IMG/VR virus record: IMGVR_UViG_3300031920_000359
From: a virus
DNA: 64,000 nt
Direction: 5' to 3' (one strand)
In this document: in pieces, positions 3,591 to 28,546 of the stretch
Position numbering within the stretch: position 1 is the first letter of the stretch
How the letters are laid out: every line of letters begins with the position of its first letter
Translations under genes and position numbers: made by a program
Notes under the pieces: generated by a model
Told to the model about the DNA's origin: nothing
Seen by the model: the letters and a program-made list of their open reading frames with translations, nothing else
The model's database searches: none

Positions 3591-3635
3591 TGAGTGATAT
3601 ACTTATTTAAATTTTTATAATTATATATAATAATA

Positions 3636-3652
3636 GCGAAGGTTTTATATAG
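3636..3652 (+). promoter_or_regulatory. Putative archaeal BRE/TATA promoter
   Basis: GCGAAGGTTTTATATAG in an intergenic gap; resembles sites at 20617, 26203 and 33079. Confidence 0.5.
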
Positions 3653-3680
3653 CTATAGGTAGTATTAAGGGTAAGAAACT

Positions 3681-3720
3681 AAGCAATACGATATACCAAT
3701 TTCCTTGTATCGTATTGCTT
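3681..3720. repeat. Perfect 13-bp inverted repeat (hairpin)
   Basis: AAGCAATACGATA (3681-3693) and TATCGTATTGCTT (3708-3720), 14-nt loop. Confidence 0.9.
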
Positions 3721-4341
3721 GTGGAGCAGATACCAATTTTGTTGTTTTATATGTTTATCTCCTAAACAATGAGTTCACAATAAAATTAGCTGTAATTCCA
3801 AAAAGATAATGAAAAATAAGTATTGAATTAGATGAAATGTCCGTTGTTTCAAAAAATATATCACCAATATATACACAGGCTTTCCTCCTGTACTGGTCAT
3901 GAGTGTAGTGCCATAAGCCATTCCGGACACATCCAATAATTTAATATTTATAAAAATTAATTTAACAGAAAAGGTGAGTAAATGATTTGTGAAGTATTTA
4001 ATGAAATGATGCGATTTGTAGATTATGTTTTTGGTGGCAATAATTCATATAGGTCAAAAATTGAGTTATGGGAAGTTGTATTGATGACAATACTGTTTTT
4101 AATATCTCTTCTTGTTATATCATGGTGGTTAATACCAATTCAATTGTTATTTAAAAAATATGGAAATATGACATTTTATTGTAATAGTAAAAAAGGTGAG
4201 TAGAAATGGTTAAAATAGGGTACACATCGAAAGGAATTGTTTTAATGGGTGAACAGCAAGTTAAAAAGGAAGATATTCCCAAACTAATTGAACAATTGCA
4301 AGAATCAATAGAAGTTTTAGATACGTTATATGACGATTGAC

Positions 4342-4465
4342 TAACGATTCTAAGCCTATTTAAGTCTACTAATTATAAGGTAAGGGTAGGAATAGGTTTA
4401 TACTAAAAAATAGCCTAAATAGTACCTTATTCTTACGATATAAGGCTTTTAAGGGCTTAATTAGG
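4342..4465 (+). repeat. Dispersed ~110-125 bp intergenic repeat, copy A
   Basis: TTTAAGTCTACTAATTATAAGGTAAGGGTAGGAATAGGTTTATA...TAGCCTAAATAGTACCTTATTCTTACGATATAAGGCTTTTAAG, shared with 15695 and 20926. Confidence 0.92.
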
Positions 4466-4504
4466 TAAAAGAAAATAAATAAGGCAATAAAAAAGGTGAT
4501 ATAA

Positions 4505-5876
4505 ATGGGTAAAAATCCAGTAAATGATTATGGTTTAAGCGTTAATGTTCCAAATGCACTAATAGAATGGCATAGGTGTAAAAGTGAAATTAATCAACTT
4601 GTGAAAATACAAGAAGAGCAAGCACGAATAATAGTGGCTGAAATAGATAGTGCGGAAAAAATGGGTTATGATAATAAAGATATTAGAACTTGTATCGGTA
4701 CTGTCACTATTTTTAGTGGTATTTCTTAAGTAAAAAGGTGTGATTAAAATGGGTAAGAAGAATATACATGAAACAAGAATTGGTGCTGAAATGGATGAAA
4801 ATAATGAAAATATAAATCCCGAAATTTTGAAGGAAATGATTGAAGAAGCCAAGAATATTGGTATAACCCCTTGGACTATTTTCTTGAAAGATATTGGTAT
4901 GGTTAAGGTGCTGGATATGACTGGTACAATAAATAGAGCTACAGGAGAACATAAATTATTAGTGCTTGATGATGAAGGTGGTATGTGGCAGATCAAAGAA
5001 GAGTTTATAATTGCACAAAGAAATAATATTATAAAACCCGAAGATTATGAACATTTTAATGAAATGAAGAGACAATCTGAAACAAATACTAAAGAATGGG
5101 AAGATCGTGAGAAAAAATTGGGATTAGATAGTGGTTTTATGTAAATATTGTTGAGGTTTTTATATGAGATTTTCTTTTAAATTTTTTAATTATGAGACTG
5201 GATTTTTTTTGAAAAGGAGATTCAGTTTTAAGGATTTATTTACAAAGGCTAAATCTGATGAAAATTTGGATATTTTGCTTTCGAGTGAAGAAAAAAGTAA
5301 ATGGAAATTAGAATTTGATATTGAAAAAAGAATTCAGGCTATAACTGGTTATAACTTTGAAACAAAAACTTTAGAAGAAGCAGGAACATGTTTATTGAAA
5401 TGGTTATTTAGAGATGTACATACAAATGTTTTACATAATCGAAAGTATTTTGATGCCGTTATGGATGTACCTCTAGAAAACACAGAAAATTGGCGTGAAA
5501 TTTTAGTAAGAAATGATGCAACTGATAAACAAATACAAGTATTTAATACTTGTTGTGGTAATAAACTACAATTTATTATGGAAGAAATATCTACGAAAGA
5601 TTATGAATTATTTGTTCGTGTAATGCATCACTATAAAAAAGATAGTGAATTTAATATATTAATAAAATCAATAGGTGATTTATAATGATTCGTGTGGATG
5701 CAAAAGCAGGAATGGCTTTATTAATTATTTTAAATGTTGATCCTATTTGTAAATTTTGTGGTGTTGAAATAACAGAAGAAAACTTTGGTGGGGCTTTTGG
5801 TAATCCGATTATAGCTTTTTGTAATAGTTTACCTTGCACATTAGAATTTAGTAATGAAGAATATGAGGAAAGGTGA
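4505..5876 (+). other. Four hypothetical ORFs (4505-4729, 4740-5144, 5164-5685, 5685-5876)
   Basis: ORF track, RBS, tight packing; no family recognised. Confidence 0.7.
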
Positions 5877-6034
5877 TTGAAATGTCATGCAAATTTAGTG
5901 AAGTTGATGGAACATGTCAGCTATATGATCCTGGACATGAAAATTTTGGTTGGAAAGATAAAGGTAAGTGCATTTGCGAAGACGATGAAGATCCAGGAAA
6001 TATGTGTGAAGAATACGAAGAAAGGTAATTTAAA

Positions 6035-6451
6035 ATGACTTTAAAACAAGTGTTTATTGTGAATAAAGATTTGAAGATGGGTAAAGGTAAGATAGCCGTT
6101 CAAGTAGCCCATGGTGAAACGTTATATATGAGTGAAATTGGTGCATGCAAATGTGTAGCAATGGTGCATGACTTAGAAGATAAAGAACATCAAATGAAAG
6201 ACAATTTTAAGGAATGGACAAAAGATGGTCTAATGAAGAAAGTTGTTCTAAAAGCAACACAAGATGAAATGTTAATGATAATAGGTGCATTAAAAGCAAT
6301 GAAAAATATAGAAGCTGATGATATATGGTTTGATGTTGTTTTTGATAGGGGTTTGACACAAATACCAGCTGACAGTATGACATGTATCGTTTTTGAACCT
6401 TTAGATGAAGCCGAAGCAGATGCTAGATTTGGATATTTAAAATTGTTGTGA
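6035..6451 (+). CDS. pth2: Peptidyl-tRNA hydrolase, Pth2 type
   Basis: KQVFIVNKDLKMGKGKIAVQVAH, KKVVLK, DRGLTQIP, C-terminal LKLL. Confidence 0.9.
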   Translation: MTLKQVFIVNKDLKMGKGKIAVQVAHGETLYMSEIGACKCVAMVHDLEDKEHQMKDNFKEWTKDGLMKKVVLKATQDEMLMIIGALKAMKNIEADDIWFDVVFDRGLTQIPADSMTCIVFEPLDEAEADARFGYLKLL

Positions 6452-7935
6452 ATGGTGATATCTTGTTGAAATTATGCTATCTTGATGTGTCTGGTAGAAA
6501 CGGAAAGTTTCTTTTTCCAAATATAGATAGTAAAACTTTGAATGAAATTCTAAGTTATAAAGAGTGGACATTTTTTGACTCTTGGTCAGATTCTAGTACA
6601 AAAATCAGTTATCTTACTTTTACTAATACGGATAAAGGTGTCTTGGTTACAACAAAAGATGGTGTTGGCTTTGTTTCAGTTCTGTTAAATCACCTCAAAA
6701 AATTGGGATTTACTGTTTTAAATATGAATGGTAAACCTTTTAACCAGTACGAAAACTGTATAAAAGTTAAATTCCCTATGTTTAAATTTGCTATGCGAAA
6801 TTATCAAAGTAATTGTTGTTTGAAATGGTTGAGAGACGGAATGGGCATAATCAAAGCTCCAACTGGATCAGGTAAAACTATTATGGCTTCATATTTAATG
6901 AAAAACATAGGTTATAAAACATTAATATTGGTGCATACTTTAGATTTGGTTAATATGTGGAAACATAGTTTTGATAAAACATTTGGCTTGTCTTTTGGTA
7001 CTACTATAGGAATCTTTGGAGGAGGTAAAGATATATCTCATGCTATTAATAAAAATATCGTTATTGGAACATACCAATCAGCTTTGAAAGAAGAAAACAT
7101 GAATAAATTGATAGGTGCTGGTTTTGGCTTTGCCTGTTTGGACGAAGTTCACCATATTGCTTGTGACACATTTAAACTTGTTGTGAATGAATTATTTGTT
7201 CCCTGTAAACTTGGTTTGTCTGCTACACCTAGACGCTTGGATGGAAAAGACAATGAAATATTTGCCCTTGTGGATAGTGTGAAAGCTAGTGTTTCGATTC
7301 ATTCATTGATTACTGATAAATTTGTTGTAAGACCTGATTTTTACAATATATCTTGGTTTGACACAGATATACTACGTGAAGTTGATAAAGAAAAAAAAGG
7401 ATTAGCCAAATCACGTAAATTAAAACAACTTTCGTCTTTTTCACCTAAAAAATATGCACTTCTTCTGAAGTTGGTCGAAAAATTTAGACAAGAAAATAAA
7501 ACATTTTTAATCTTTGCCGATTATGTAAAAGCAGCCGAAGCTATTGAATTTGTAATTAATAAATTTATTACAATAAATGATAAAAATTTTAAGATCAAAA
7601 GAGTACAACAAAAAATGTCGTCTGACAAACGATCAGCTGTTTTCAATAAAGTAGGTAAAAAACATAGTGACTACAATGGACTGGTATTCGCAAAACTTGG
7701 TTCGGAAGGCATTGACATTTCAGCTGTCGATTGCATAATAAATTTATCTCCATCTAAATCTCCTGTTACTTTTGCTCAACGAACAGGACGAGCTATGCGA
7801 ATTGCTAAATACAAAGATCACTGCGAAGTATATCAGTTTATGCTCAAAGGTTCAATGGAAGAAGGTTGGGCAGATTTTAGCTTTGACGAATTTAGACAAG
7901 AAAATTTTGTTGCTAAGAATTATGTAATTAGATAG
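6448..7935 (+). CDS. Superfamily 2 helicase (XPB/UvsW-like)
   Basis: APTGSGKT, DEVHH, LSATP, GIDI, QRTGRAMR. Confidence 0.9.
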   Translation: MNGDILLKLCYLDVSGRNGKFLFPNIDSKTLNEILSYKEWTFFDSWSDSSTKISYLTFTNTDKGVLVTTKDGVGFVSVLLNHLKKLGFTVLNMNGKPFNQYENCIKVKFPMFKFAMRNYQSNCCLKWLRDGMGIIKAPTGSGKTIMASYLMKNIGYKTLILVHTLDLVNMWKHSFDKTFGLSFGTTIGIFGGGKDISHAINKNIVIGTYQSALKEENMNKLIGAGFGFACLDEVHHIACDTFKLVVNELFVPCKLGLSATPRRLDGKDNEIFALVDSVKASVSIHSLITDKFVVRPDFYNISWFDTDILREVDKEKKGLAKSRKLKQLSSFSPKKYALLLKLVEKFRQENKTFLIFADYVKAAEAIEFVINKFITINDKNFKIKRVQQKMSSDKRSAVFNKVGKKHSDYNGLVFAKLGSEGIDISAVDCIINLSPSKSPVTFAQRTGRAMRIAKYKDHCEVYQFMLKGSMEEGWADFSFDEFRQENFVAKNYVIR

Positions 7936-8560
7936 GTGCTTGAAATGAAACTGATAAAAAAATCTGAGTTGGAAATACAAAATGATAGTTCTTATAAAAC
8001 AATTATGTTTGATAAACCAGAACATTTTACGCAAGAACAGAATGTGAAAATTATATACAATAAAAAAGAAAATGATGAAACAAAAATTGTTGTTTCAGTT
8101 TGTCGATAATAAAATAGGTGATTGAAAATGGGACTTAAACGTATCAGTAAAATTAATAATAAAAATGGTGATGTAAGAATAACGTATAAATGTACACATT
8201 GTTACAGAACGATATTTACAACACCACCTATTAAAAAAGGTGAATCTTTTGAATTTGATCGTATCACTATACCAAATCATTGTGTCTGTGGAGAAAAACT
8301 TATAGGCGAAATTAAAACAGTTGGACTACTTATTGATGAAATAGAAACTATTATATATGATTGGTAATTAAAAATGAATATTGATGTAAATGAACAATTT
8401 GAATGTGTTGGTATAAACGATCTATATTGTTCTGCTGTAGGATGTATACGTTATTTTCCAAAGGAAAAAGAATTTATGTTGTGCCCTGATTTAAAATTAA
8501 AAGATGAGTATGCTATATTTAAGATGTGATTAGATGCAAATGATTTAAAAATAAGGTGAA

Positions 8561-9007
8561 TTGAAAATGAATGATAAAAATGATAAACTAAATGATATTA
8601 TACAAAAATACTCTGATGTTTATAAAGACAAGGAAATAAAATTTGATAAAATAAATATATTTTTACCAAATTTTATTTGTGATATTGTAAATGAAGGATT
8701 TAATGGTGTTGATCAGGTCAGAATGAGTAAAGGAATATTTATTACTTCAATTGTAGACGATTATTTTGAATATATACAACAGTTATATAATATTAATCCT
8801 TCATTATACGAAGAAGAACGATTAAAATATGTTAGACAACAGTTAGGTATTACAATTATTCCTGAAACTAATGATAAAATTGATGAAATCAAAAAACTAA
8901 TTGGCACTAGTGATAGAGTCGGTGTTGTCAAAAATGCTATAGAACATTATATTAAAACAAAGGATGATATTGTATTATATGAAGATATATTGATGGATGA
9001 TGATTGA
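8561..9007 (+). CDS. Possible tandem ribbon-helix-helix DNA-binding protein
   Basis: Two strand-helix-helix-like segments (KINIFLPNFICDIV...; GITIIPETNDKIDEIKK...VVKNAIEHYI). Confidence 0.35.
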   Translation: MKMNDKNDKLNDIIQKYSDVYKDKEIKFDKINIFLPNFICDIVNEGFNGVDQVRMSKGIFITSIVDDYFEYIQQLYNINPSLYEEERLKYVRQQLGITIIPETNDKIDEIKKLIGTSDRVGVVKNAIEHYIKTKDDIVLYEDILMDDD

Positions 9008-9350
9008 AATGTATGAATTACCAATAATGATATGGTTTAGAAAAAAACTTGGTTTTTTAAAATCAGATGAAATTACAGCAGACAAGGCTGAAACTATGTT
9101 GAAAAAAGAGATAGAGTTACAAGACTGGAAAGATGAAGTTAGTGGTATGTATCTTAAAAATCGTGGTAGTAGATTAAATGAATCACCATTTACGACATAT
9201 TTTTTAGAATATTGCCAATTTTGTACTAATTTTATGCCAAGTAAGTGTTTTACACAAAGTGGTAATATTTATACAGAAGATATTGATAGGTGCACAAAAC
9301 TTAGATTACGAATTAAGTTACTGAAAGAAGCTGAATTAATTGATGGATGA
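8997..9350 (+). CDS. Hypothetical protein, paralog of 9347-9571
   Basis: N-terminal ~48 aa (MMIEMYELPIM.WFRKKLG.LKSDE) nearly identical to the next ORF. Confidence 0.75.
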   Translation: MMIEMYELPIMIWFRKKLGFLKSDEITADKAETMLKKEIELQDWKDEVSGMYLKNRGSRLNESPFTTYFLEYCQFCTNFMPSKCFTQSGNIYTEDIDRCTKLRLRIKLLKEAELIDG

Positions 9351-9571
9351 TGATTGAAATGTATGAATTACCAATAATGACTTGGTTTAGAAAAAAACTT
9401 GGTTATTTAAAATCTGATGAACTTGTTGCTAGGAAAGCTGAAAATATATTGAAAAAAGAGACAGCATTACAAGATTGGAATGAAGAACTATTTCAATTAG
9501 ATAGGTCAGATATTGCACATCCTGGTTTGAGTGCTTTATATGAAATACTAAGTGCTGAAAGGAGAAAATAA
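9347..9571 (+). CDS. Hypothetical protein, paralog of 8997-9350
   Basis: Same N-terminus, unrelated C-terminus. Confidence 0.75.
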   Translation: MMIEMYELPIMTWFRKKLGYLKSDELVARKAENILKKETALQDWNEELFQLDRSDIAHPGLSALYEILSAERRK

Positions 9572-10068
9572 TATGATAGTTAAAAATAGATATAGTAGAT
9601 TTGATAATAATATGTTTGGTATTGATTTAATACCAGAAGTAGATGAAGATCTTGAAATAACTAAACGATTTTATGATGGTGGCATATTTTTACTTGGTTA
9701 TTCATCAAGTGGCACATTAACTTTATCCTTTACAGATTTGATCGATAAACCTTTAAAGCCAAAAATGCAGGTAAAACCTACTGTACCACCAATACCTATT
9801 GTATCTGTTACTACAAGCAAATTAAATCAATCAGATATTGACTTGATAGAAGAGATAATTGATGAAATCGAAAATATTTCTTTGTTAAAAGACATACGAT
9901 GTAGTGACGAAGTTAGTAAAGCGGTAGAAAACCATTTCATTGGTAGACTTATACGTAGATATTCACAGTAACCCCGACTGTAGTAGTTGGTTTACATTGT
10001 AAGTAGAAGCAATTAAAATATTCTACAATACGAAACGAAACTAAACGAATATTAAGAGATGAATAAAT

Positions 10069-11253
10069 ATGGCTAAAACAAAGAAAGCAAATGTGAAAGA
10101 CAACGATGTTGTCTATTTAGAAGGTATTGATAATAGTGAAGTTGAAGCTAAGCTTCAGGAGATATTAGATAATGTAGATTCTGAGATGGAACTTGAAGAT
10201 GCTATCAATTTGTTTGTTAAGAAGGCTAACAGCAAGTATGCAAACGATAGGATAGATACTTCTGAAAAGAGAGCAACATATGCCTTTGGTTTTATTAAAA
10301 CTAAAGTCAAATCAAAGAGGACATTTTCTTCTAAACCAACTATGCCTATTTCTTGTGTCATGCGAAGTGTCAATAGTATAAAAAATAATTATACTAATGT
10401 AACTGAAGCAACAAGAGATATGACAAGCAATGATGACAAGATAGGTATTGCTGGTCCATGGAGAAGATGCGTTGATTGTGGAGCGAGATATGATACAGCC
10501 AGTGAACAATATAAAGGTAAGTGTCACAAATGTGATAGTACGAATAGTGTTACTATGGCTAATCAGGCTGCACCAATTGGTACAAAAGGCATAGTAAATA
10601 GACAGGAAATGAAGGCTGGTGATATTTCAGGATTTAATAAAACGAGAACTACTATATTCGTATATGATTCTGATTCAGAAGAAATGGAAGAAGCTTTCCT
10701 AAGTTTTTCAGGTACACAGCAAGGTCTTTTGAGTAAAGTACAATTAGGTACACCTTTTGATATAAATGTTCAATCAGAAAACATTTATGTTAATGATGTA
10801 ACTAATATTACCTCATATGAAACTACTGGTACATCAAAAATAACGGAATGTTCTATTGAAGACTTCCCTGATATACTCAAGATCTATGATGAAATGGAAC
10901 TAATGAGTTCTGTTGAAGATCTAAATAGTGGTGACTATGCAACATTGTTCCTAGAAGTGGTTGAAGAAGCAAAGCAACCTAAGGAAGGAGGCCGATGGCT
11001 AGTTCAATTTATGGAACCGAATGAAGATCCTGACGTTGAACCTACTTTGTTAGGTGCATACTTTGATGACGAGGACATTGCAAAACAGTTTAGCGAAAAC
11101 GATCACGGTGTCGTCGAGTGTCGGTATTCAGAGAGCGAAGTAACCGTTGGAGGAGAAACAGAGATAAGTACAATAATTAATATTGATGTCGATGTCTGTG
11201 GTCTTCCAGTATTTATACTTGGAGATGATGGTACAAAGTTACTGAGTGCATAG
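10069..11253 (+). CDS. Acidic protein with central Zn finger; possible RPA-like ssDNA-binding protein
   Basis: CVDC...CHKC motif flanked by beta-rich segments; followed by a hairpin terminator; OB-fold assignment is inference. Confidence 0.4.
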   Translation: MAKTKKANVKDNDVVYLEGIDNSEVEAKLQEILDNVDSEMELEDAINLFVKKANSKYANDRIDTSEKRATYAFGFIKTKVKSKRTFSSKPTMPISCVMRSVNSIKNNYTNVTEATRDMTSNDDKIGIAGPWRRCVDCGARYDTASEQYKGKCHKCDSTNSVTMANQAAPIGTKGIVNRQEMKAGDISGFNKTRTTIFVYDSDSEEMEEAFLSFSGTQQGLLSKVQLGTPFDINVQSENIYVNDVTNITSYETTGTSKITECSIEDFPDILKIYDEMELMSSVEDLNSGDYATLFLEVVEEAKQPKEGGRWLVQFMEPNEDPDVEPTLLGAYFDDEDIAKQFSENDHGVVECRYSESEVTVGGETEISTIINIDVDVCGLPVFILGDDGTKLLSA

Positions 11254-11259
11254 AGTTTG

Positions 11260-11290
11260 CATAGGGCATTAGCCCTATGTTTTAATTTTT
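11260..11290 (+). terminator. Hairpin plus T-tract terminator
   Basis: CATAGGGC-atta-GCCCTATG followed by TTTTAATTTTTT. Confidence 0.75.
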
Positions 11291-11322
11291 TGACAATAAA
11301 ATGAATTTAGGTTATGATTTAA

Positions 11323-12135
11323 ATGACATATACAGATGAAAAATTAATTTCAGAATTACAAAGATTTTATGATGAAAATGGAAGAGTTCCAGTTCAATTA
11401 GATATGCAGCTAAAATATGGTTATCCTTCATTTACTACATATATAAATCATTTTAAACCGTTTAATAGCGCTCTTGAAATAATAGGATTTGAAATAAACA
11501 ATAAACATCAAACAGGAACACTAGATGGTACTGAAACTTGCTCTTATTGCGGTTTACGAGCTGATGAAATAATTGGTTTTGAACATTGGCATTATGTTAA
11601 TGATATTAGATATTGTAAAAAACATGGAAATAGTGGTTCAAAAGGAAATCCTGATTATGTAAAGGGTGAACTTGATATTAATAGTTCAGTTGGTCGTGGA
11701 AGAGTAGGAGAAATACTTGTAGTCAAAACACTAGGAATAGGAAAGGAACATGATTATAATCGAATTAGTTGTGGTTACTCATTTGATTTATATAATGAAG
11801 AATTTGGTAGAATAGATGTTAAAACATCGTTATTAAGTTTTGACAATCGTAGTCGTTGGAAATTTAATTTTCAAGATAAATCAGAAATTAAAACTTATAT
11901 TTGCATTGGTTTATCTTTAGACAGAAAATTTGTTCAACACGTTTGGATAGTTCCTAACAAAGGTAAAATCAGAAATTTAATAACTTTTACTGTTTACGAT
12001 ACATATCGTTCATTATCTAATAGAAGGAAATGGGAAGTTGATGCAAATCGGTATGATTATAAATGGCAAACTATGAAACTAGATAATTGTAAAATCATGG
12101 TTGATAAGAATAAACCAGAAATTATTCATACTTGA
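11323..12135 (+). CDS. Free-standing homing-endonuclease-like protein (helical repeat plus PD-(D/E)xK nuclease)
   Basis: YTDEKLISELQRFYDENGRVP...YINHFKPFNSALE repeat type; GRVGE...FDL...IDVKTS nuclease motif. Confidence 0.6.
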   Translation: MTYTDEKLISELQRFYDENGRVPVQLDMQLKYGYPSFTTYINHFKPFNSALEIIGFEINNKHQTGTLDGTETCSYCGLRADEIIGFEHWHYVNDIRYCKKHGNSGSKGNPDYVKGELDINSSVGRGRVGEILVVKTLGIGKEHDYNRISCGYSFDLYNEEFGRIDVKTSLLSFDNRSRWKFNFQDKSEIKTYICIGLSLDRKFVQHVWIVPNKGKIRNLITFTVYDTYRSLSNRRKWEVDANRYDYKWQTMKLDNCKIMVDKNKPEIIHT

Positions 12136-12729
12136 GAAGAGACAAAAACTAATTCAATATAATAAGTTAAGATTGAAATTTAAACAAAAAGTAGGTAAAT
12201 AAATATGAGTATAATTAGAAAAATATTTGGGTATACTTGTTCTATGTGTCATAAAACAATTCAAAAGGGAAACTATGCAAGTTTTATGTATGGAAAAGGA
12301 CATCTATGTATTGACTGTATTATCAAACCAGAAAGTAATTGGGGTAATATTAGAACAAGGGAAAAATACTTTGAATATGTGGGAAAACCTGATTCAAGAG
12401 AAGAATGGAATATAAAGTTAGAAAAATTAGGCTATCCATCAATGTCAAGACTTAAATGGTTTATATATCATGGATTGGATTAATTAATGTTAAAAGTAGG
12501 TAAAATAATAAAATAGGTGATAATAATGGAAATAGATAAATCAGAAATATTATATATGGTGAAAATATCATCACAAGAATTAGCTGATATACGAAGATGT
12601 ATTACAAAAGTAAATGATAAAAACTTATTTGATGATGATAAACAAAAACATAGGTGTCGTGAAATATCTACACAAATAATAATTGATACAAAGGAACCTG
12701 CTCCAATTGTAATAGATAGGTGATTAAAT

Positions 12730-13791
12730 ATGTTTATAGATGAGATAAAAAAGAAGTATGAATCTGAATTGTTGAAGAAGAAAAATGTTGTTGGTGTAAT
12801 GACAGCATTTAAGATTGAAAAAGGACATAAGACTAAAACATCGAGTATAACTTGTTTGGTTGAAAAGAAAATACCTATGATGAAACTTGAGGCAAAAGAT
12901 ATTATACCAAAAGAGATTGATGGTGTATTTACAGATGTCATAGAAGTTGGTGAAATAAAGGCTTTGATTCATATACCTTTTATAGATGATGTAAATAATG
13001 ACAGTTTAATTGACAGAAAAAGTAGGATTAGACCTGCTCCTATGGGTACATCTGGAGGACACTATAAAATAACGGCCGGTACTAATGGTGAACTTTTATT
13101 AATCGATGGTGATATTTGTATAGGTACTAATAATCATGTTGCCGCATTGTCGAATCATGCTGAACTTGGTGATCCTTATTTACAACCTGGCTCCCATGAT
13201 GGAGGTAAACTTCCAAATGATCTAATCGGCTATTTATATAAATATGAACCTATAAACTTTGTCGGTACACCAAGTAAGTGTAAAGTCGCAGGGACAATTG
13301 TAAACATGTGTAATCTTGTAGCGATGGTCTTTGGTCGTAAAACAAGACTAAATGCTTTTTATAGTAAAAATAATGTACCTAATCTAGTTGATGCTGCTGC
13401 AGTTATAGTCATTAATCAAAAAGATATATTGACTAAAATATTAAATATTGGAATACCCAAAGGAGTAGGAAAAGCACATATTGATACGTTGGTTCAAAAA
13501 TCAGGCAGAACAACTGGCCACACAAAAGAAGCTCTAGTGACATCTATCGATGCTACTATAAACGTTAGCTATGGTGAAGGTAAAATGGCATTATTTACAG
13601 ATCAAATATTAATTTCTAAACCAGGTTTTTCTGCAGGCGGAGATAGTGGTAGTTTAGTATTAAATATGGGTGGTTTTGCCGTTGGTAAACTATTTGCTGG
13701 TAGTGATCAAGTTACGATAGCTAACCATATTGATGATTATTTAAAAGCATTAGACGCAACGTTAATAACTGATGTAACAAATAGCGGATAA
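12730..13791 (+). CDS. Trypsin-like serine protease (Nal1-like)
   Basis: Catalytic triad TNNHV / VDAA / GGDSGS; N-terminal NVVGV...IPKEIDGVFTDVIEVG domain. Confidence 0.8.
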   Translation: MFIDEIKKKYESELLKKKNVVGVMTAFKIEKGHKTKTSSITCLVEKKIPMMKLEAKDIIPKEIDGVFTDVIEVGEIKALIHIPFIDDVNNDSLIDRKSRIRPAPMGTSGGHYKITAGTNGELLLIDGDICIGTNNHVAALSNHAELGDPYLQPGSHDGGKLPNDLIGYLYKYEPINFVGTPSKCKVAGTIVNMCNLVAMVFGRKTRLNAFYSKNNVPNLVDAAAVIVINQKDILTKILNIGIPKGVGKAHIDTLVQKSGRTTGHTKEALVTSIDATINVSYGEGKMALFTDQILISKPGFSAGGDSGSLVLNMGGFAVGKLFAGSDQVTIANHIDDYLKALDATLITDVTNSG

Positions 13792-14177
13792 GTGATTAAG
13801 TATGAATAAAATAGAATTAAATATAGAAGATTTGATAACAAAGGATGTAGCAAGTAAGTTGTTAGAAACTATATCTATGGAAGATAGGCAACGAATATTG
13901 GAGGCTTCATTAATTAAAACTCTTGATAGTGTGTTGAATTCATTTCAAGTAGAAAGAGTTATAAAAGCTGATGTTGAAAAATATATGGCCGAATATTTGC
14001 AGAATGTCGATGTCCAAAAAAGAATTAAATTAGCTACGATTAAAAATGTTGACATACTAATGGATGGTGTAGTGAATGCAGTAGTAATCGGTGCACAGGA
14101 ACGATTGCAAAATACTTATGCAAAACTAGTCAAACAAGGTGAGGTTTAGTATTATAGTAATATGTAGGTGATTAGAA

Positions 14178-14372
14178 ATGACAATGATAAAAGTAGATAT
14201 ATTTAGGCCATCAGGTAAACATGATAGTACTGAATATATGGACATACCAGATGGTATAGATGATAATGATATTCGTGCTTATATTAGAATCAATGCTAGA
14301 ATGCGAAATACTACTTATTTGTTTAATGGATTAGAATATGATGTGTCATATTTAGTACACATAGGTGATTAG
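14178..14372 (+). CDS. 64-aa hypothetical protein, tandem paralog 1
   Basis: IFRPSGK...ARMRNTTYLFNGLEYDV..LVHIGD. Confidence 0.75.
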   Translation: MTMIKVDIFRPSGKHDSTEYMDIPDGIDDNDIRAYIRINARMRNTTYLFNGLEYDVSYLVHIGD

Positions 14373-14374
14373 AA

Positions 14375-14569
14375 ATGACAAAACTAAGTGTCCAAATATT
14401 TAAACCATCAGGCAAATGGTATACAAATGAAGACATAGAAATACCGGATCGTATTAAAGATTTCAATATAGCTGATTATATTGAACAACATGCAAGAATA
14501 AGAAATGCAACATATTTGTTTACTGGACTAGAATATGAAGTTCCACAATTAGTACACGTAGGTGATTAG
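14375..14569 (+). CDS. 64-aa hypothetical protein, tandem paralog 2
   Basis: IFKPSGK...ARIRNATYLFTGLEYEV..LVHVGD. Confidence 0.75.
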   Translation: MTKLSVQIFKPSGKWYTNEDIEIPDRIKDFNIADYIEQHARIRNATYLFTGLEYEVPQLVHVGD

Positions 14570-14571
14570 AA

Positions 14572-14889
14572 ATGGAAAGTAAAATTGAGAATGTTATATC
14601 TGATAAAGTAAAACAAGAATATGAAAGACAACTTAAAAAGCTTCAAAGTCAAGCTACGAGAAGTTGTGAAGATTTAAAATCTTGTTATGAATCTACTCTT
14701 GAAACATTGCAGCAACTTAAATTAGTAGATGCAACAATATTTGATTTCTTTGAAAGAACAAATGGTAATATTAGAATTGTTGGTCATACTACTACATTTA
14801 GTGATAAATTAAATATACGTTCATATAATCAGGCGGACTTGATAAATGATAACGGAATAAGACTTAAAAAAATACAAAATATAAAATAA
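14572..14889 (+). CDS. Hypothetical coiled-coil protein, possibly frameshifted at an A7 run
   Basis: ORF track; the -1 frame continues to TAG at 14925-14927. Confidence 0.65.
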   Translation: MESKIENVISDKVKQEYERQLKKLQSQATRSCEDLKSCYESTLETLQQLKLVDATIFDFFERTNGNIRIVGHTTTFSDKLNIRSYNQADLINDNGIRLKKIQNIK

Positions 14890-14911
14890 TATTAATGGCT
14901 ATTGAAGAAGA

Positions 14912-14960
14912 CGAACAAGATAAATAGTATCTTGTTTTATCTATCTTTTTAATTTTTTAT
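14912..14960 (+). terminator. Hairpin plus T-tract terminator
   Basis: AACAAGATA-aatag-TATCTTGTT followed by T-rich sequence. Confidence 0.7.
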
Positions 14961-15388
14961 AAATATAATTGATGTGATTATTGTGGGTTTTGGAAAAAGA
15001 AAAGTAAAACAAAATGTTAGTAAAAAGGAACATAAAGATGAATCTAAATCTAGTGAATCGAATAAACTTATTGAAAACAAAAGCAAAAAACTTGTTAATA
15101 AAGATAGTTGTATTGATAGTAATAATAGTGGTGTCGATGGTAGTAGTAATATCTCTAATATTGGCTTAAAAGAACAAAGAACTTTAAATTTCATGAAAAA
15201 AGCAGGTAAAAATAAAAGCTCAAATATATTATTGTTTGGCGTTACAAAAAAAGCCAAATTAGAATTATTTATTCATAATTTAAAACTATTACATCCAAAA
15301 ATGCCAGATTTTTGGCTTGAAAATGAAATTAATAAATTCAAAAAGAAGTTTAGTATTAAAGACAATAAATAAGATTAGGTGATTAAGA

Positions 15389-15697
15389 ATGGTATATAAA
15401 ACAATAAAAGTGGCTAAAGAAATTATGGAACCACATAGATATTGTGACATCTGCGGTAATGAAATTAATATTAATCTCGCTTGTAATACAGCAAGATGTA
15501 GCTACTGCGGAAGAGATCTATGTGAAGATTGTATCGGTAATGAAGAAGATACTTCTGGTGATTATCGATTTGTTTTTTGTAAAGATTGTTGGAATATAGG
15601 GGAAAGTTATAGACCTGAAATTGATGAACTACACACAAAAATCAATGAATTATACGAAGAATGGCAGGGTAAATGTAAAGAAAACAGCATTGAATAA
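15389..15697 (+). CDS. Zinc-finger protein
   Basis: CDIC, CSYC, CEDC and CKDC pairs. Confidence 0.7.
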   Translation: MVYKTIKVAKEIMEPHRYCDICGNEININLACNTARCSYCGRDLCEDCIGNEEDTSGDYRFVFCKDCWNIGESYRPEIDELHTKINELYEEWQGKCKENSIE

Positions 15698-15813
15698 CGA
15701 TTTAAAACCTATTTAAGCCTACTAATTATAAGGTAGGGCAGGAATAGGTTTATAGTATAAAGTAGGCTTCTATAGGGCTTAACGTTACGATATAAGCCTT
15801 TTAAGGGGTTAAT
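15695..15813 (+). repeat. Dispersed intergenic repeat, copy B (most diverged in its central-3' part)
   Basis: TAACGATT..AA.CCTATTTAAGCCTACTAATTATAAGGTAGGGCAGGAATAGGTTTATAGTA...TTACGATATAAG.CTTTTAAG. Confidence 0.9.
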
Positions 15814-16039
15814 TCGATAGATTTTAGATATAAGAAACAGACAAATAAAATAATAAATGGAATGGTGGTTTAAATGAATGATATTTTTGAAATCGAAGAG
15901 ATAATTAGACAAGGGGATGAATGGAATTATTATAATGAGTCTAAAACTAATTATCTTAAAGCTATGGCAAAAACTCAGTTGCTAATCCTTAAAGAACTAC
16001 GTGAAATGAGGAAATAATAGGGTAATATTTATTAAATAG

Positions 16040-16585
16040 GTGTTTGCTATGTCATTTGGTAAAAAAACAACAAAGAAGGCTTCTGCAAAAACAATTAAGT
16101 CTAAGCCCGTTGATAAAATTCGTGATAATCTTATCTCTGAACGGATCAAAGGAATAGTTAATTGTACTGATGCAGGATGTTGTCCCATTGAATATATACA
16201 TAAGAAAATGTCAGGAGTAAAAAACATTGAAGATCATATTAAAATATGTTCTAAACAAAATAATTTTATATTACACCGAGGTTGGGTCTATAACAAATTT
16301 TGGACTATTGAAGACTTAAATGAAATATCAAATGATAAAATTATTGTTGATGATTTTGATGGTGATAATTCTAAAATAGATAATGACTTATTAGTAAAGC
16401 TAACAGCTTTATATCAAAGAGAAAACGAACCCATAAAAGTAACATGGTTTGAAGGATTAATTAACAGAGGAGCATTACATATAACAGAAAAAGAGTTATG
16501 GCAATCTCTTGAACGTTTGATGCGCTCAGGTAAAATCTATGAACCACGCATCGGCGAATTTGCCCCTACATTTGATAGTATTTAG
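16040..16585 (+). CDS. Protein with C-terminal winged-helix (MCM/RPA32 C-terminus-like)
   Basis: ELWQSLERLMRSGKIYEPRIGEF. Confidence 0.5.
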   Translation: MFAMSFGKKTTKKASAKTIKSKPVDKIRDNLISERIKGIVNCTDAGCCPIEYIHKKMSGVKNIEDHIKICSKQNNFILHRGWVYNKFWTIEDLNEISNDKIIVDDFDGDNSKIDNDLLVKLTALYQRENEPIKVTWFEGLINRGALHITEKELWQSLERLMRSGKIYEPRIGEFAPTFDSI

Positions 16586-17202
16586 TAAAGGAAGTGATTA
16601 GAAATGAATAAACTTGACTATAAAAATTTTAGAGATAGATATTGTGGAGAATGCATACCAGCAATTTCATATTTATGTTGTCAATCAGAAGAAGAGATAG
16701 ATGAATGTATAATATATATGACAGAAACAGAAGAATATTCTAAAGTAACACATAATAAAAAGAGGTGATTATAAATGGCTGAAGTAATGAGTGCTAAATG
16801 CACAGTATGTGGTAAAATATTTGAAGGTAAAAATTGTGTTCAAAAAGCTGAAGAACATGAAAAAATACCTGTTGAAAAAACAATACATGAAATTGGTGAT
16901 ATATTAGTATATCCTAAACGTGATGGTAATTTTAATGTATATATAATATCAATGGTCTATATTGGTGAGTATGAACACAAGCAAGTATATTATGGTTGTA
17001 ATGATCATGAAAATATGTTTAAGTTACAAATCAATAACGTAGATGGAGTTAGAATAGTAGACAAAGAAGATTTACTAAATAATCCATATTATACTGATTT
17101 GAGACATAAGGTAATGGAATTATGGATACATAATTTATTTGGACATTTGTCAAATAGTATGGATCATTATGGCATAGATAACATCATAGGTTATGAAAGA
17201 AG

Positions 17203-17985
17203 GTGATTAAATTGTATGCTACGACAATAATAGATAGTTCTGCCATGAAGGCTTGGGAACGAGCCATGAATTTCGTGGCAAAAAGTCCTGAAAGATTAAA
17301 ATTTGGTGGGGGAACGGAAGTGAAGCATGCTTATGACAGCCAAGTTTCAATAATTCTTGATGAAAATGCTATCAATGAATTGCTAAATGAACAATGGCAT
17401 CCATCAGATCCATTTTGCAGTGTAGATCGTGTCAAAGCATATAAAGAAGAATACAAGAAAGGTTTTGATGCTTCTAAATTTGATTATACATATAGGGATA
17501 GACTTGAAAATGCCTTCGATCGGGCTTGTTATAATCAAATAAATCAAATAGATATACTGCGAGAAGGATTACAAAAACAAATTGATGAACAAATGGGGTC
17601 AAATCGAAATATTGCTATATTGTTTAATCCAATTATTGATAATTTTTCAGGTAAAGCAATACCTTGTTTAAATGAAATCCTTATCAGATGGGAAAAAGAA
17701 AACTATTGTTCCGTTCATACAACTTTTAGAAGTCATGATCTTGCTTCGGCTTGGAATTCTAATATGTTAGCACTCACTGAATTTATAAATGAAGAAATAG
17801 TTAAACCTTGTGATTGTAAAATACTTTATTGGAGTGAACACAATTATTCGTTGCATATTTACGACTATGATCAATTTGTTGTAGAAAATATGATTGTTAT
17901 AAATAGAAATCCAGCTTTGTCTCTTCTACAAGTAAAGTACGATAACATTGTTTCAGGTAATATTAACAGGTTTGATTGGCAATAA
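17203..17985 (+). CDS. thyA: Archaeal-type thymidylate synthase or dUMP-modifying enzyme
   Basis: FDYTYRDRL, catalytic IPCL, FRSHD...N, SLHIYD. Confidence 0.8.
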   Translation: MIKLYATTIIDSSAMKAWERAMNFVAKSPERLKFGGGTEVKHAYDSQVSIILDENAINELLNEQWHPSDPFCSVDRVKAYKEEYKKGFDASKFDYTYRDRLENAFDRACYNQINQIDILREGLQKQIDEQMGSNRNIAILFNPIIDNFSGKAIPCLNEILIRWEKENYCSVHTTFRSHDLASAWNSNMLALTEFINEEIVKPCDCKILYWSEHNYSLHIYDYDQFVVENMIVINRNPALSLLQVKYDNIVSGNINRFDWQ

Positions 17986-18329
17986 ATATGACATTAATGA
18001 TTGGTAGAAAAGTGTTGCTCCAAACAGTGAGGATACTTGAGCTGTTTGACAAGTATCCTCAATTTAAAAATATGAATACAAGAATTGATATAATGACCTA
18101 TCAATTTGGTGAATTTGTTAAATATTTTAAAATTTATGCAAAGGCATATGGACATTTGAATGATGGATATACTGCTGAAGCAAGAGTATGCTTAGCAAGC
18201 CTCTTAATCCAAATAGAAATGTTTTGTATTGCAAAAGGTTGGGACATTAATGTTCTACGGAATGAAGGATATGAACATCTTCTCGATAAGATTGAAGAGG
18301 TCGAAGCAAAGAACGGTGAGATGATTTAA
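17976..18329 (+). CDS. MazG-like all-alpha NTP pyrophosphatase fold (degenerate acidic motifs)
   Basis: YQFGEF...EARVCLASLLIQIEMFCIAKGWDI resembles EExGE...ELAD.l..l..la...g.Dl. Confidence 0.4.
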   Translation: MAINMTLMIGRKVLLQTVRILELFDKYPQFKNMNTRIDIMTYQFGEFVKYFKIYAKAYGHLNDGYTAEARVCLASLLIQIEMFCIAKGWDINVLRNEGYEHLLDKIEEVEAKNGEMI

Positions 18330-18330
18330 A

Positions 18331-18891
18331 ATGAAAATTGGAACTAAGAGTTTACTATTTGGTTGCCATCAATTTATGTTGCATCCTATTTATACATATG
18401 TAGCTTGGAGAAAATTATATAACGAATTTCCAAGTTTGGGTGAAACGGTTGCCATTGTTATACATGATTGGGGATACTTTGGTAAACCAAATCTAGATGG
18501 TGATGAAGGAGAAAAACACCCTGAATGGGCAAGTAATATTTTTGAAAAAATAGGTATTTATATACGAAATAACATACACTTTAATTCTGGAAATTATTTT
18601 TTTGAATTGTCTGAACTTTGTTTATATCACAGCAGATTTTATGCTAAAAGATATGAACGAAAACCATCTAAACTATGTTGGGCAGATAAATATGGAACAA
18701 CACTATATGGTAAATATTTATGGTCTTTTCTTGCCGTAATAAGTGGTGAACTAAAAGAATATATGACTAATGATAAATATGAAATATATTATAAAGGAGC
18801 AGAAGATGATGGTACATTTTTATGGTTTACAGAATATGTAAAATTTATAACACCAGTTATAAAAGAAAATGTTAAAAAGCGTAAGAAGTGA
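18331..18891 (+). CDS. HD-domain phosphohydrolase
   Basis: HQ..LHP, IHDWGY, KHPE, YHSR, WADK. Confidence 0.65.
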   Translation: MKIGTKSLLFGCHQFMLHPIYTYVAWRKLYNEFPSLGETVAIVIHDWGYFGKPNLDGDEGEKHPEWASNIFEKIGIYIRNNIHFNSGNYFFELSELCLYHSRFYAKRYERKPSKLCWADKYGTTLYGKYLWSFLAVISGELKEYMTNDKYEIYYKGAEDDGTFLWFTEYVKFITPVIKENVKKRKK

Positions 18892-18897
18892 TTATAA

Positions 18898-20331
18898 ATG
18901 GCTTTCACTGAAAAATATAGACCTCAAATATTGAAAGATGTTGTTGGGCATCAACAACATTTGACTTTTATATCTAATTGGGCTAAAGAATGGGAAAATG
19001 GTATACCAAAGATAAGAGCTTTGATTTTTTATGGCCCACCAGGAATTGGTAAAACGACTATAGCTCATGCGTTGGCTAATGAAATGAAATGGGAAGTAGT
19101 TGAGCTTAATGCAAGCGATACTAGGACAGCAGGAGCTATACAAAGAACAGCTGGTTCTGCTAGCAAATCGATGTCATTGGATTCGGCATATAGAAGAAAA
19201 CTAATTGTATTAGATGAAGCGGATAATTTACATGGTAATAGTGACCGTGGTGGAAGTCGTGCAATAATTAATATAATAAAAGAAACATTGCAACCTATTA
19301 TACTTATTGTCAATGACTTTTACAAACTCGATACTTTATTAAAATCATTGTGTAAAAGTTTGCAATTTAAAAATGTCAATGAAATAGATATTTCAAAATT
19401 ATTAGTTCGTATATGTGAAAATGAAAACATAGAAATTGAAGAAAAAGCAGTTAAATATATATCAAAAAATTCTAACGGTGATGTAAGAGCAGCAGTAAAT
19501 GATCTAGAGAGTATTTGTGCAAACAAAAAAGAAGTTAATTATAATGATATTACAAATATAAAAAATGATAATGATGAATCAAATTTTAACCAAAGGAACA
19601 TTTCTGAAACAGTATTTACGTTTGTAGATAAAGTCTTGAACGGCAATGTAAACATAAATGAAATTTTAGAATTATCTGGTAACATAGATGAAAATCCAGA
19701 ATCAACTATTCATTGGTTAGATGAAAATATACCTTTGACATATAAAGATACAAACGAATTATATGAAGCTTATAATTTATTATCAAAAGCTGACCTGTTT
19801 CTTGGTCGAGTTCATAAGAGACAAAATTATTCGTTGTGGAAATATGCAAATACATTAATTTGTGGCGTGGGTAGCGTTGGTAAAACTAATTCTGGCTTTG
19901 TTCGATATTCTCCTCCTAAATATTGGAGCAAACTTAAACAAAGTAAACCTAGCCGAAATATCAAAAACTCAATTGCTTTGAAAATAGGTAGCATTTGTCA
20001 TGTATCAAGTAGAAAAGTTCTCTCTGATATGTTGGGGCTTATCAAAAAATTGATGCAAAATGAAGAATATTCAATACTTATAGCTTTTGAATTAGATTTT
20101 ACAAAAGATGAACTAGCATATTTGTTCAATTGTAAGTCCAACTCAAAAAAAGTTACAACAATTATCGATATTGTTTTAAAACTCAAAGAAGATGATACAG
20201 AAATAGACAATATTAAAATAAATAATATCAATACAGATGAATTGGTAACTTCGATTAACGACAATGCGATTAAAAGTAAAATCAAGAATAAAGTCAAAAG
20301 CAAACAACAGATGATTTTAGATGACTTTTAA
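18898..20331 (+). CDS. rfcL: Replication factor C large subunit
   Basis: TEKYRP, GPPGIGKTT, VELNASDTR, LDEADNL..DRGG, GDVRAAVNDL, RRQNY-like KRQNYSLWKYA. Confidence 0.92.
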   Translation: MAFTEKYRPQILKDVVGHQQHLTFISNWAKEWENGIPKIRALIFYGPPGIGKTTIAHALANEMKWEVVELNASDTRTAGAIQRTAGSASKSMSLDSAYRRKLIVLDEADNLHGNSDRGGSRAIINIIKETLQPIILIVNDFYKLDTLLKSLCKSLQFKNVNEIDISKLLVRICENENIEIEEKAVKYISKNSNGDVRAAVNDLESICANKKEVNYNDITNIKNDNDESNFNQRNISETVFTFVDKVLNGNVNINEILELSGNIDENPESTIHWLDENIPLTYKDTNELYEAYNLLSKADLFLGRVHKRQNYSLWKYANTLICGVGSVGKTNSGFVRYSPPKYWSKLKQSKPSRNIKNSIALKIGSICHVSSRKVLSDMLGLIKKLMQNEEYSILIAFELDFTKDELAYLFNCKSNSKKVTTIIDIVLKLKEDDTEIDNIKINNINTDELVTSINDNAIKSKIKNKVKSKQQMILDDF

Positions 20332-20616
20332 TATATAAGTTAAAACAAATAAAGGAGATAGATAAGATGAATAAATTTACAGATCAAATTGAAGACACTG
20401 AGAATAGAGTTGAATCATTGTCCAAAATAAAAAGAGAATCAGATAGAACAGTAACATGTCTAAATAAAATTGTTGCTGATCATATAACAGCAAGGGACAA
20501 TGAAATCAAAAAAGGCAAAACATTGCAAAATAATATTAATAAATTAAAACGTAAGCTTGAAAAACTCAGAGAATTAGAGTAATTTGGATACTCTATAAAG
20601 CTTATTATAAAGAAAA

Positions 20617-20633
20617 TCGAAAATTATATATAC
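20617..20633 (+). promoter_or_regulatory. Putative BRE/TATA promoter upstream of RHH gene
   Basis: TCGAAAATTATATATAC. Confidence 0.5.
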
Positions 20634-20695
20634 TATAGGCTATATAGAGTATCTATAACCTTTATATATATTATTTTTTAATAACAGGACTAAAT

Positions 20696-20878
20696 ATGAG
20701 TAAAAGTAATTTTTTAAAAACAAATAATGTAACAGTTACATTATCTGATAAAGATAAAACAAAACTTAATCAATTAGCTAATGCTGATCAAAAAAGTCTT
20801 GCTGAATGGTTGAGAGACCAAATTACGATACAATATTTTGTTAATTATGAACAAACTGCAGTAGAGTCAGCAACATAA
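20696..20878 (+). CDS. Ribbon-helix-helix (CopG-like) regulator
   Basis: VTVTLSDKDKTKLNQLANADQKSLAEWLRDQI. Confidence 0.65.
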   Translation: MSKSNFLKTNNVTVTLSDKDKTKLNQLANADQKSLAEWLRDQITIQYFVNYEQTAVESAT

Positions 20879-20925
20879 ATCGACGTTTATTAATATCTTT
20901 AATAAGTAATTTAAATTTAAAGCGT

Positions 20926-21030
20926 TTTAAGCCTACTAATTATAAGGTAAGGGTAAGAATAGGTTTATAGTATAATATAGCCTAAATAGTACCTTATTCT
21001 TACGATATAAGGCTTTTAAGCTCTTAATTA
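20926..21030 (+). repeat. Dispersed intergenic repeat, copy C
   Basis: TTTAAGCCTACTAATTATAAGGTAAGGGTAAGAATAGGTTTATAGTATAATATAGCCTAAATAGTACCTTATTCTTACGATATAAGGCTTTTAAG. Confidence 0.92.
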
Positions 21031-21057
21031 GATAGATTACAAAAGAAGGAAATACAA

Positions 21058-21417
21058 ATGACAGAATATAAAACGAATACACACGAAGAATCAATGGCCT
21101 TATCCCTACAGGCATATGAAGCTAGATGTTTAGCTTGGATAGATGAGTTCAACAACGGTCAGATGATTAAAGTAGAATCGAATATGGATTGTCCCATACA
21201 TTTTTGGGTAGTAAGCAATAAGAAGATATGTTATCATGAATTCATACCCAATACAGCATTTTGTAAAATATGTGGTAAACCTTGCTGTCCTGAGTGTTTC
21301 AGTCATGGGGTACATCAAATGAGTAGAGTTACTGGATATGTAGGCAACGTAGATAGTTGGAACGCAGGTAAACAACAGGAATTTAAGGACAGAGATAGAT
21401 TCACCACATTCGGTTAA
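21058..21417 (+). CDS. Stand-alone NrdD C-terminal (Zn ribbon plus glycyl-radical loop) protein
   Basis: C..C...CC..C followed by MSRVTGYVGNVDSWNAGKQQEFKDR, the class III RNR C-terminal signature. Confidence 0.75.
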   Translation: MTEYKTNTHEESMALSLQAYEARCLAWIDEFNNGQMIKVESNMDCPIHFWVVSNKKICYHEFIPNTAFCKICGKPCCPECFSHGVHQMSRVTGYVGNVDSWNAGKQQEFKDRDRFTTFG

Positions 21418-28167: not shown

Positions 28168-28169
28168 GC

Positions 28170-28420: not shown

Positions 28421-28546
28421 AAAAATCGCTAGCTAGAGCCTTCATTTTTAAAAAAATAAACTAATTACTAAAAAATCTCTTACTAAAAATCTTTTATAAG
28501 GCCTACTGCTAGCGGTTTCTATACCTGCTAATAGTAGGTATAAACC

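Follow-up and report, generated by a model that had tools for sequence, protein, structure and literature searches.

A repeated intergenic cassette, possibly a portable promoter and leader, in a virus-like element from marine sediment

Why would a virus keep one non-coding sequence in three separate gaps between its genes? The question is raised by a 64,000-nucleotide (nt) stretch of virus DNA, IMG/VR record IMGVR_UViG_3300031920_000359 (hereafter referred to as the window), in which a non-coding unit of ~125 nt (the cassette) is present as copies A, B and C that head three gene blocks in the replication region. A preliminary description of these copies had proposed a reusable promoter and stem-loop cassette that may also act as a recombination joint, analogous to the PeSL elements of T4-type phages, or, alternatively, a structured non-coding RNA or a non-autonomous mobile unit. 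Here we report that the cassette is repeated, occupies defined positions, is conserved among related viruses and is mosaic in composition, and that its hairpin covaries in the subclade to which the window belongs. From these features, we infer promoter activity, transcription start sites, a function of the hairpin and possibly a binding protein. As judged from its sequence, the cassette is, with somewhat better than even confidence, a portable archaeal promoter/leader cassette with a hairpin that has spread by recombination.

The window has a GC content of ~30% and a positive GC skew (+0.2 to +0.4 on the + strand), and all of its genes lie on one strand. They encode the small and large subunits of an archaeal-type RFC (Rep_fac_C domain), an XPB-like helicase, a protease-like protein and an AAA ATPase. 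The large RFC subunit (RFC-L) has ~24 metagenomic relatives at 56–75% identity, followed by proteins from Methanosarcinales, the nearest named organisms, at ~45%. The DNA runs that match the sequence come from marine sediment only. Deposited phage genomes contained no DNA match to the cassette or to the first 24 kilobases (kb) of the window, and IMG/VR contained no exact cassette words and, in a protein comparison, no relatives. We treat the window, on the basis of these sequence comparisons, as an uncultured archaeal virus-like element from marine sediment, and its promoters are therefore expected to be of the TATA/B recognition element type rather than the sigma-70 type.

Three copies of one non-coding cassette

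The searches bore out the initial observation that three copies lie in the same orientation between co-directional genes and share two sequence blocks. Each block has three exact matches on the + strand of the 64-kb window and no others, with up to 3 mismatches allowed, and neither was found in 100 dinucleotide-preserving shuffles (Table 1). A repeat finder returned a single three-copy family of 109 nt, in which A is 93% identical to C and 66% identical to B without gaps, and a profile of all homologues matched only A, B and C across the window. Copies A and C are 89–93% identical and have a 44-nt exact stretch in common, whereas B resembles them closely in its left third (92%) and right third (83–87%) and less in its middle (~60%). 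The right block (alignment columns 97–126) is the best-conserved segment within the subclade, at 67–100%, and presumably comprises the 5′ leader and the 3′ arm of the palindrome described below.

Each copy fills the whole intergenic gap between co-directional + strand open reading frames (ORFs). The copies start at or a few nucleotides from the upstream stop codon, with B overlapping the stop codon of a 102-residue ORF, except for C, which starts 45 nt past the stop; the distance from the cassette 3′ end to the next start codon is 19–49 nt. Within the replication module, 11.4 kb separates A from B and 5.2 kb separates B from C; the gene after C has a Pfam NRDD match. A coding function was ruled out, as stop codons occur in all six frames and no ORF is conserved on either strand. 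Cassette words are concentrated in gaps: TTAAGCC, TAAGCCT and AGGGCTT occur 8, 9 and 9 times in gaps versus 0, 1 and 1 times in 218 kb of coding sequence.

Logan unitigs end inside A (4424–4439) and C (20991–21006), a break that a 44-nt exact repeat would be expected to cause. The genes flanking the copies are arranged as in relatives, and the copies are therefore not a misjoin or another assembly artefact. A replication origin or packaging site was set aside, given three same-strand copies in operon gaps and a far better origin-like inverted-repeat region at 28168–28974. A tRNA search found nothing.

Table 1. Coordinates of the cassette copies, their flanking genes and their predicted parts in the window
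Feature	Copy	Coordinates	Strand	Basis or remark
Cassette	A	4343–4469	+	nhmmer E 3.6e-29, exact blocks
ORF upstream, 44 residues	A	4206–4340	+	whole gap filled
ORF downstream, 74 residues	A	4505–4729	+	whole gap filled
Cassette	B	15696–15825	+	nhmmer E 1.1e-25; site conserved in relatives
ORF before, 102 residues	B	15389–15697
ORF after, 47 residues	B	15874–16017
Conserved gene after, 181 residues	B	16040–16585
Cassette	C	20913–21039	+	nhmmer E 1.3e-28
ORF before, 60 residues	C	20696–20878		weakly ribbon-helix-helix (RHH)-like
NrdD-tail gene after, 119 residues	C	21058–21417
Left shared block (first position)	A, B, C	4359; 15712; 20926	+	exact matches
TATA-like box GGTTTATA	A, B, C	4395–4402; 15747–15754; 20962–20969	+	apex of palindrome in A
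Right shared block, TTACGATATAAGG through CTTAATTAG	A, B, C	4433–4464; 15785–15816; 21000–21031	+	exact matches
Putative transcription start zone	A, B, C	4424–4428; ~15776–15780; ~20990–20994	+	predicted from archaeal promoter geometry and likeness to the promoter of an RNA candidate
Four nested helices	A	4350–4357/4453–4460; 4363–4367/4443–4447; 4383–4388/4423–4428; 4394–4401/4410–4417	+	RNAalifold; for C, add 16567
Own long hairpin, including AAGCCTACT/AGTAGGCTT	B	15695–15787	+	−36.5 kcal/mol, z −3.96, 0/200 shuffles

Conservation of the cassette in related viruses

For comparison, we used syntenic contigs for nine related RFC-L genes, three of which were extended upstream; one JGI locus duplicates L003, and the paired labels L004/L015, L006/L016 and L008/L014 each denote one virus or contig. 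A profile search revealed a near-gapless homologue of ~125 nt at site B in all eight relatives that cover the site (L003, L004/L015, L006/L016, L008/L014, L010, L012, L019 and, in part, L017, at its contig end). In each case it lies between the homologue of the 102-residue ORF and the conserved ~180-residue gene, and it has been kept across viruses whose RFC-L proteins are 57–69% identical to that of the window. All 13 non-redundant copies are on the gene strand and terminate 19–49 nt before the next start codon; apart from C, they begin at the upstream stop codon or a few nucleotides from it.

Copies beyond site B were found only in the window and the L004/L015 virus. One of the latter (L004 13464–13589) follows the homologue of a 71-residue gene of the window, roughly at the C position, and another (L015 2000–2125, hereafter L015A) is near the A position. 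These A-type junctions are not equivalent: the cassette in L015 follows the homologue of the 74-residue gene, whereas that in the window precedes the 74-residue gene. The closest relative, L001 (75% identity in RFC-L and 79% in the NrdD-tail gene), has no cassette at site C, and a different gap of 324 nt precedes its NrdD-tail gene. Elsewhere among the relatives, the C-like position also holds a long gap with a sequence different from the cassette; in L012 and L006, this gap nevertheless has the left-half layout of the cassette, with AAGNCTA, TAAGGG and TTTATA in this order, 35–45 nt ahead of a start codon that is preceded by a ribosome-binding site. Three relatives (L008 ~12510–12560, L010 ~12450–12500 and L019 ~12265–12315) have, in the long gap that follows the 71-residue gene homologue, a piece similar to a tRNA 3′ half, with the T-arm GGCAGGTTCAAGTCCTGCC, which may be left over from a tRNA gene or be an attachment site.

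A predicted promoter and leader

The TTTATA-type, TATA-like box claimed for each copy is present as GGTTTATA in all three. The + strand of the window has six instances of this word, three of them inside the cassette copies, and the columns of the word in the window copies coincide with the TATA columns of the L008, L010 and L019 cassettes. No sigma-70 promoter lies in the copies among the sites listed, and the window as a whole has 112 sigma-70-like sites versus 118.5 expected from shuffles. A bacterial promoter/terminator reading, for which the scan gave no signal, was rejected.

The 391-nt gap just upstream of A (3591–3981) contains a conserved structured-RNA candidate of ~290–470 nt (3643–3950, + strand), with homologues in L014 (7897–8451), L015 (1194–1622) and L016 (630–990). 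RNAalifold assigns 53 pairs to it, 13 of them compensatory, and it has a 5′ hairpin of 16 base pairs (bp) with six covarying pairs and a 3′ domain with a long-range helix, together with a variable central insert. The candidate has no Rfam match even at E ≤ 1, and may be a new virus-encoded non-coding RNA.

The TATA box of this candidate (3643–3651) lies ~26–30 nt before the covarying 5′ hairpin, a spacing that an archaeal promoter would be expected to have. In L014/L008, the core of the B cassette is a close match to the segment of the predicted RNA-candidate promoter that runs from the TATA to the start. Because of this homology, transcription from the cassettes is expected to start near 4427, 15779 and 20994.

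The cassette would have an upstream arm with AAGNCT and TAAGGGTAA words, a central TATA-like box, an initiation zone ~26 nt downstream of the TATA centre and a conserved leader of ~40 nt, which would run on into a 5′ untranslated region of 64–95 nt with a GGTGAT-type ribosome-binding site at its end. Together with TBP and TFB, the RNA polymerase of the host would start at the cassettes and transcribe the replication-module blocks from 4505, 15874 and 21058.

A palindrome confined to one subclade

In the seven subclade copies (A, B, C, L003a, L004a, L004b and L015A), which come from 3–4 related viruses, RNAalifold revealed four nested helices comprising 25 pairs. In this structure, 89% of the cells are paired and in eight pairs both partners have changed. 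The observed value was matched by none of 500 shuffles for four of five measures, and sliding the 3′ partners lowered the proportion of paired cells to 30–54%. The subclade copies fold at −28 to −38 kcal/mol, with z-scores of −1.5 to −4, although the fold z-scores alone are weak for A (−2.06) and C (−1.57). The cassettes of the other clade reach only −12 to −17 kcal/mol, the level of shuffled sequences (for a set of four, −14 to −17 kcal/mol with z −0.27 to +0.85), and the alignment of ten family copies gave no conserved pair with RNAalifold. The palindrome with its compensatory changes is present in the window's subclade only, and RNA structure across the family is absent. The covariation anticipated in the preliminary description is thus found in the seven copies and not in the family, a result that also leaves its structured non-coding RNA alternative weak.

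The 9-bp pairing AAGCCTACT/AGTAGGCTT described for B is real, and forms part of a long, strong hairpin of this copy's own, with a symmetry centre ~17–20 nt further 5′ than in A and C. The sequences described as nested pairings in C exist as well; however, ATAAGGTA/TACCTTAT and GTAAGAATA/TATTCTTAC cross and share TAT, so they are mutually exclusive alternatives rather than nested helices.

These helices raise the question of whether the cassette acts mainly as an RNA element within long polycistronic transcripts, serving the upstream message as an attenuator, a processing site or a 3′-end stabiliser and lacking a separate promoter. As the copies have no terminators upstream, transcription probably reads through, and the four helices kept by compensatory changes include an apical helix that replaces the TATA columns in L003 and L004. 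Furthermore, the + strand folds better than the − strand in all seven subclade copies, by 3.5–10.8 kcal/mol; this advantage is, however, expected anyway, because the G-rich + strand favours G–U pairs. The lack of family-wide pairs argues against such a function, as do the four other-clade cassettes that were folded, which do no better than shuffles and yet retain their sequence, length and position, and the differing hairpin centres of B and A/C. Moreover, comparing the window with Rfam at the gathering score gave no match, and neither did comparing 3550–4520, which covers A, at E ≤ 1. We regard a mainly RNA-based role as unlikely.

Mosaic copies and turnover of neighbouring genes

In columns 21–58, A, B and C are 92–95% identical to each other and 39–66% identical to the copies of other viruses. 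The cassette occurs in two forms of the 5′ end and two of the middle, and all four combinations are seen. In the same columns, L015A is 95% identical to L003a and 53% identical to the other copies of its own genome, and in columns 59–126 it is 89–100% identical to L004a/b. Its sequence clearly marks L015A as a chimera of two viruses' cassettes, with the parent switch near column 58–62; B departs from A and C from column ~62. Such mosaic and chimeric copies indicate that cassettes recombine within and between viruses, in line with one part of the proposed recombination joint. No contig among three runs (the source and related runs) joins one cassette to another, although contigs drop rare forms. 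The odd joints listed, 7584>18769 and 4848>16333, are short on one side or thinly covered and lie away from the cassettes, and were rejected.

As had been suggested, the neighbouring small genes differ between relatives: directly 3′ of the B cassette there are 0–2 small ORFs, often unrelated from one relative to another. Just upstream of A, a related strain from another sediment run is without 3969–4188 (220 nt, most of a 73-residue ORF at 3982–4203). The homologue of this ORF sits after the helicase in L008/L014, and it is a small gene that moves.

The increase in copies might also reflect a non-autonomous mobile element resembling miniature inverted-repeat transposable elements (MITEs), which would insert in intergenic DNA and carry promoter-like sequence incidentally. 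Correia elements of Neisseria are mobile elements that carry promoter-like sequence. The cassette is palindromic, with the terminal inverted words CTAAT.TAAGCC/GGGCTTAATTAG in L015A and L004b, its copy number is raised only in the subclade with the palindromic form, and the new copies lie at non-equivalent junctions. By contrast, a comparison of filled and empty junctions revealed no target-site duplication, and the unit lacks clean ends. The repeated unit extends 3′ past the inverted words, with ATAGATTTTAG common to several copies, and the 13 non-redundant copies all point the same way and keep a set distance from the next start codon. In addition, every relative has retained the B copy by vertical descent, the proteins of the window and the relative loci include no evident transposase, and the mosaic copies fit homologous recombination. 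A MITE-like origin is, in our view, very improbable.

A further possibility, which we consider distinctly unlikely, is that an ordinary promoter region turned into a long palindrome in one subclade and that the palindrome itself let it copy to new gaps and swap halves between co-infecting viruses. Its apex would be the exchange point, where the parent switch of L015A and the departure of B from A and C are placed. If true, a hairpin-driven template-switch or cruciform-resolution route would spread and rewire archaeal virus promoters, amounting to a transposase-free 'promoter MITE'.

Under the promoter/leader explanation, the copy at site B would be ancestral to the whole virus group, and the two arms would have turned complementary in the window's subclade. 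Through homologous recombination, the subclade module would then have been copied to new gaps and traded from copy to copy and among co-infecting viruses. Owing to the complementary arms, read-through RNA from the upstream gene, or the DNA itself, could fold into a long imperfect hairpin that encloses the TATA box and that may attenuate or process upstream transcripts, or present symmetric sites to a regulator.

Candidate regulators

Symmetric sites could also be the chief purpose of the cassette. As a DNA operator array, its palindromic AAG-N-CTT-type words, placed to either side of the TATA box, would be the target of a dimeric regulator from the virus that controls the three units together, with the conserved ~180-residue protein downstream of site B and the 60-residue RHH-like protein upstream of site C as candidates. 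TAAGNCT-type words do occur at fixed columns on both arms, and the ~180-residue gene always follows the B cassette. The flanking blocks, at 92–95% identity within the window copies and 39–66% between genomes, fit co-evolution with a genome-specific binding factor, but recent copying or gene conversion explains the likeness within a genome equally well. There are weak winged-helix leads for the ~180-residue protein and a weak RHH lead for the 60-residue ORF, whereas neither protein has a significant DNA-binding domain match. An operator array as the main function appears quite improbable to us; the operator reading is compatible with the promoter/leader explanation and does not exclude it.

The ~180-residue protein (window 16040–16585) has homologues in all relatives, at 65–70% identity. 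It has no significant match in Pfam, and a PDB profile search found no homologue. Its secondary structure and atlas leads (scores <0.9) hint at winged-helix domains, and its AlphaFold model is poor (predicted local distance difference test score of 57). The 60-residue ORF matches RHH_1 (CopG) at 16.9 bits, below the cut-off of 20.5, and has counterparts at the same place in L008 (12745–12966) and L010 (12691–12897).

Comparison with known intergenic elements

The intergenic repeats of HF2, which are 58 bp (class I) or 29 bp (class II) long and also occur in other haloferacalesviruses, are proven promoters, as demonstrated by a reporter assay, primer extension and mutagenesis, with a TATA at −26 (PMC8707807). 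Very long transcripts begin at these repeats, which keep their positions from one relative to the next; virus-encoded repeat-binding factors have been proposed for them, not shown (PMC8707807). Like these repeats, the cassette is a repeated non-coding sequence with an A/T-rich TATA-like box, located in gaps that head long co-directional early/middle gene blocks. GGTTTATA is found in all three window copies, with A/T-rich boxes at or near the same columns in all relatives, and both sequence and position are conserved in the site-B cassette of all eight relatives covering the site. Unlike the HF2 repeats, the cassette is about twice as long, has a long leader and, in one subclade, an imperfect palindrome, and is present in only three copies in 64 kb. 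It also comes from an unrelated virus group with an unrelated host lineage, and the promoter is predicted for the cassette whereas it has been assayed for HF2.

The haloarchaeal myovirus HGTV-1 has, according to the published summary, a TATA and inverted-repeat motif before most ORFs of one genome arm, which was explicitly compared to PeSLs, with suggested roles in controlling transcription and in shuffling the genome (PMC3950731). As far as that summary goes, the cassette resembles it as an archaeal virus motif that joins a TATA-like region to an inverted repeat, and differs in having three copies 5–11 kb apart rather than one before the majority of ORFs on an arm.

PeSLs combine a sigma-70 −35/−10 promoter with a G/C-rich terminator hairpin, and number ~50 per genome in hyperplastic regions (PMC2839356, PMC4122927); recombination between them shuffles ORFans and forms mini-circles (PMC2839356). 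Like PeSLs, the cassette reaches across the intergenic gap from the stop codon of one gene to the ribosome-binding site of the next, has a stem-loop that overlaps a promoter-like box, is reused within a genome, has variable small genes nearby and shows signs of recombination between copies. The PeSL analogy of the preliminary description therefore holds for mosaicism and stem-loop potential. It fails for promoter type (a predicted archaeal TATA-type promoter and no sigma-70 site among those listed) and for copy number and distribution (three copies that do not flank single ORFans), and probably for the terminator-type hairpin, that of the cassette being long, A/T-rich and imperfect, with no T-run. 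In relation to MITEs, the shared sequence passes the inverted words, duplications are absent and a single orientation is kept. The proposal of a reusable promoter/stem-loop cassette is partly supported: the unit is reused, non-coding, same-strand and intergenic, with a TATA-like box and stem-loop potential; by its features, it would work most like the HF2 and HGTV-1 elements and less like a PeSL. It extends a known theme and does not open a new one.

Evidence against a portable promoter

Several observations weigh against the promoter/leader explanation. GGTTTATA is not at the same columns in L003, L004/L015, L012 and L006, which have looser A/T-rich boxes a few nucleotides away, so the exact TATA assignment is uncertain. 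A transcript that started at the predicted place would carry the 3′ arm alone, and the hairpin would therefore require read-through RNA or DNA extrusion. No run of five or more T residues follows the hairpin, no terminator-like site was called in the copies, and no RNA runs matching the sequence were found. The covariation comes from a small set of copies, and the structure was derived from the same sequences. As for the shuffling of small genes, unmatched small genes are common throughout these genomes; since gene turnover is high everywhere, a concentration of turnover at the cassettes cannot be claimed.

Other features of the window

The XPB-like helicase of the window (6448–7935) has 495 residues and is intein-free, whereas in two relatives (L003 1–953 and L008 447–3380) it has ~977 residues with an intein. 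ACGAAAC-type repeats precede a conserved ~400-residue gene at 9972–10068 and occur in other gaps of the clade; this type of word is enriched in gaps (14 versus 7 in 218 kb of coding sequence). The single clean terminator-like site of the replication module, a 9-bp G/C-containing hairpin with a T-rich tail, is located at 11259–11290, directly 3′ of a 394-residue gene. Repeats of other kinds comprise a tandem 197-nt duplication at 14165–14558 that gives two 64-residue paralogues, a 149-nt repeat at 8989–9487 with copies 350 nt apart, and eleven 75-nt tandem units at 45636–46610 within a 510-residue ORF.

Implications for archaeal viruses

The transcription signals of uncultured archaeal viruses are almost unknown, and the cassette offers a concrete candidate promoter/leader for this group, marking three probable heads of transcription units in the replication module. 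Its mosaic copies suggest that non-coding regulatory modules, besides genes, are swapped between related archaeal viruses, as proposed for PeSLs and HGTV-1.

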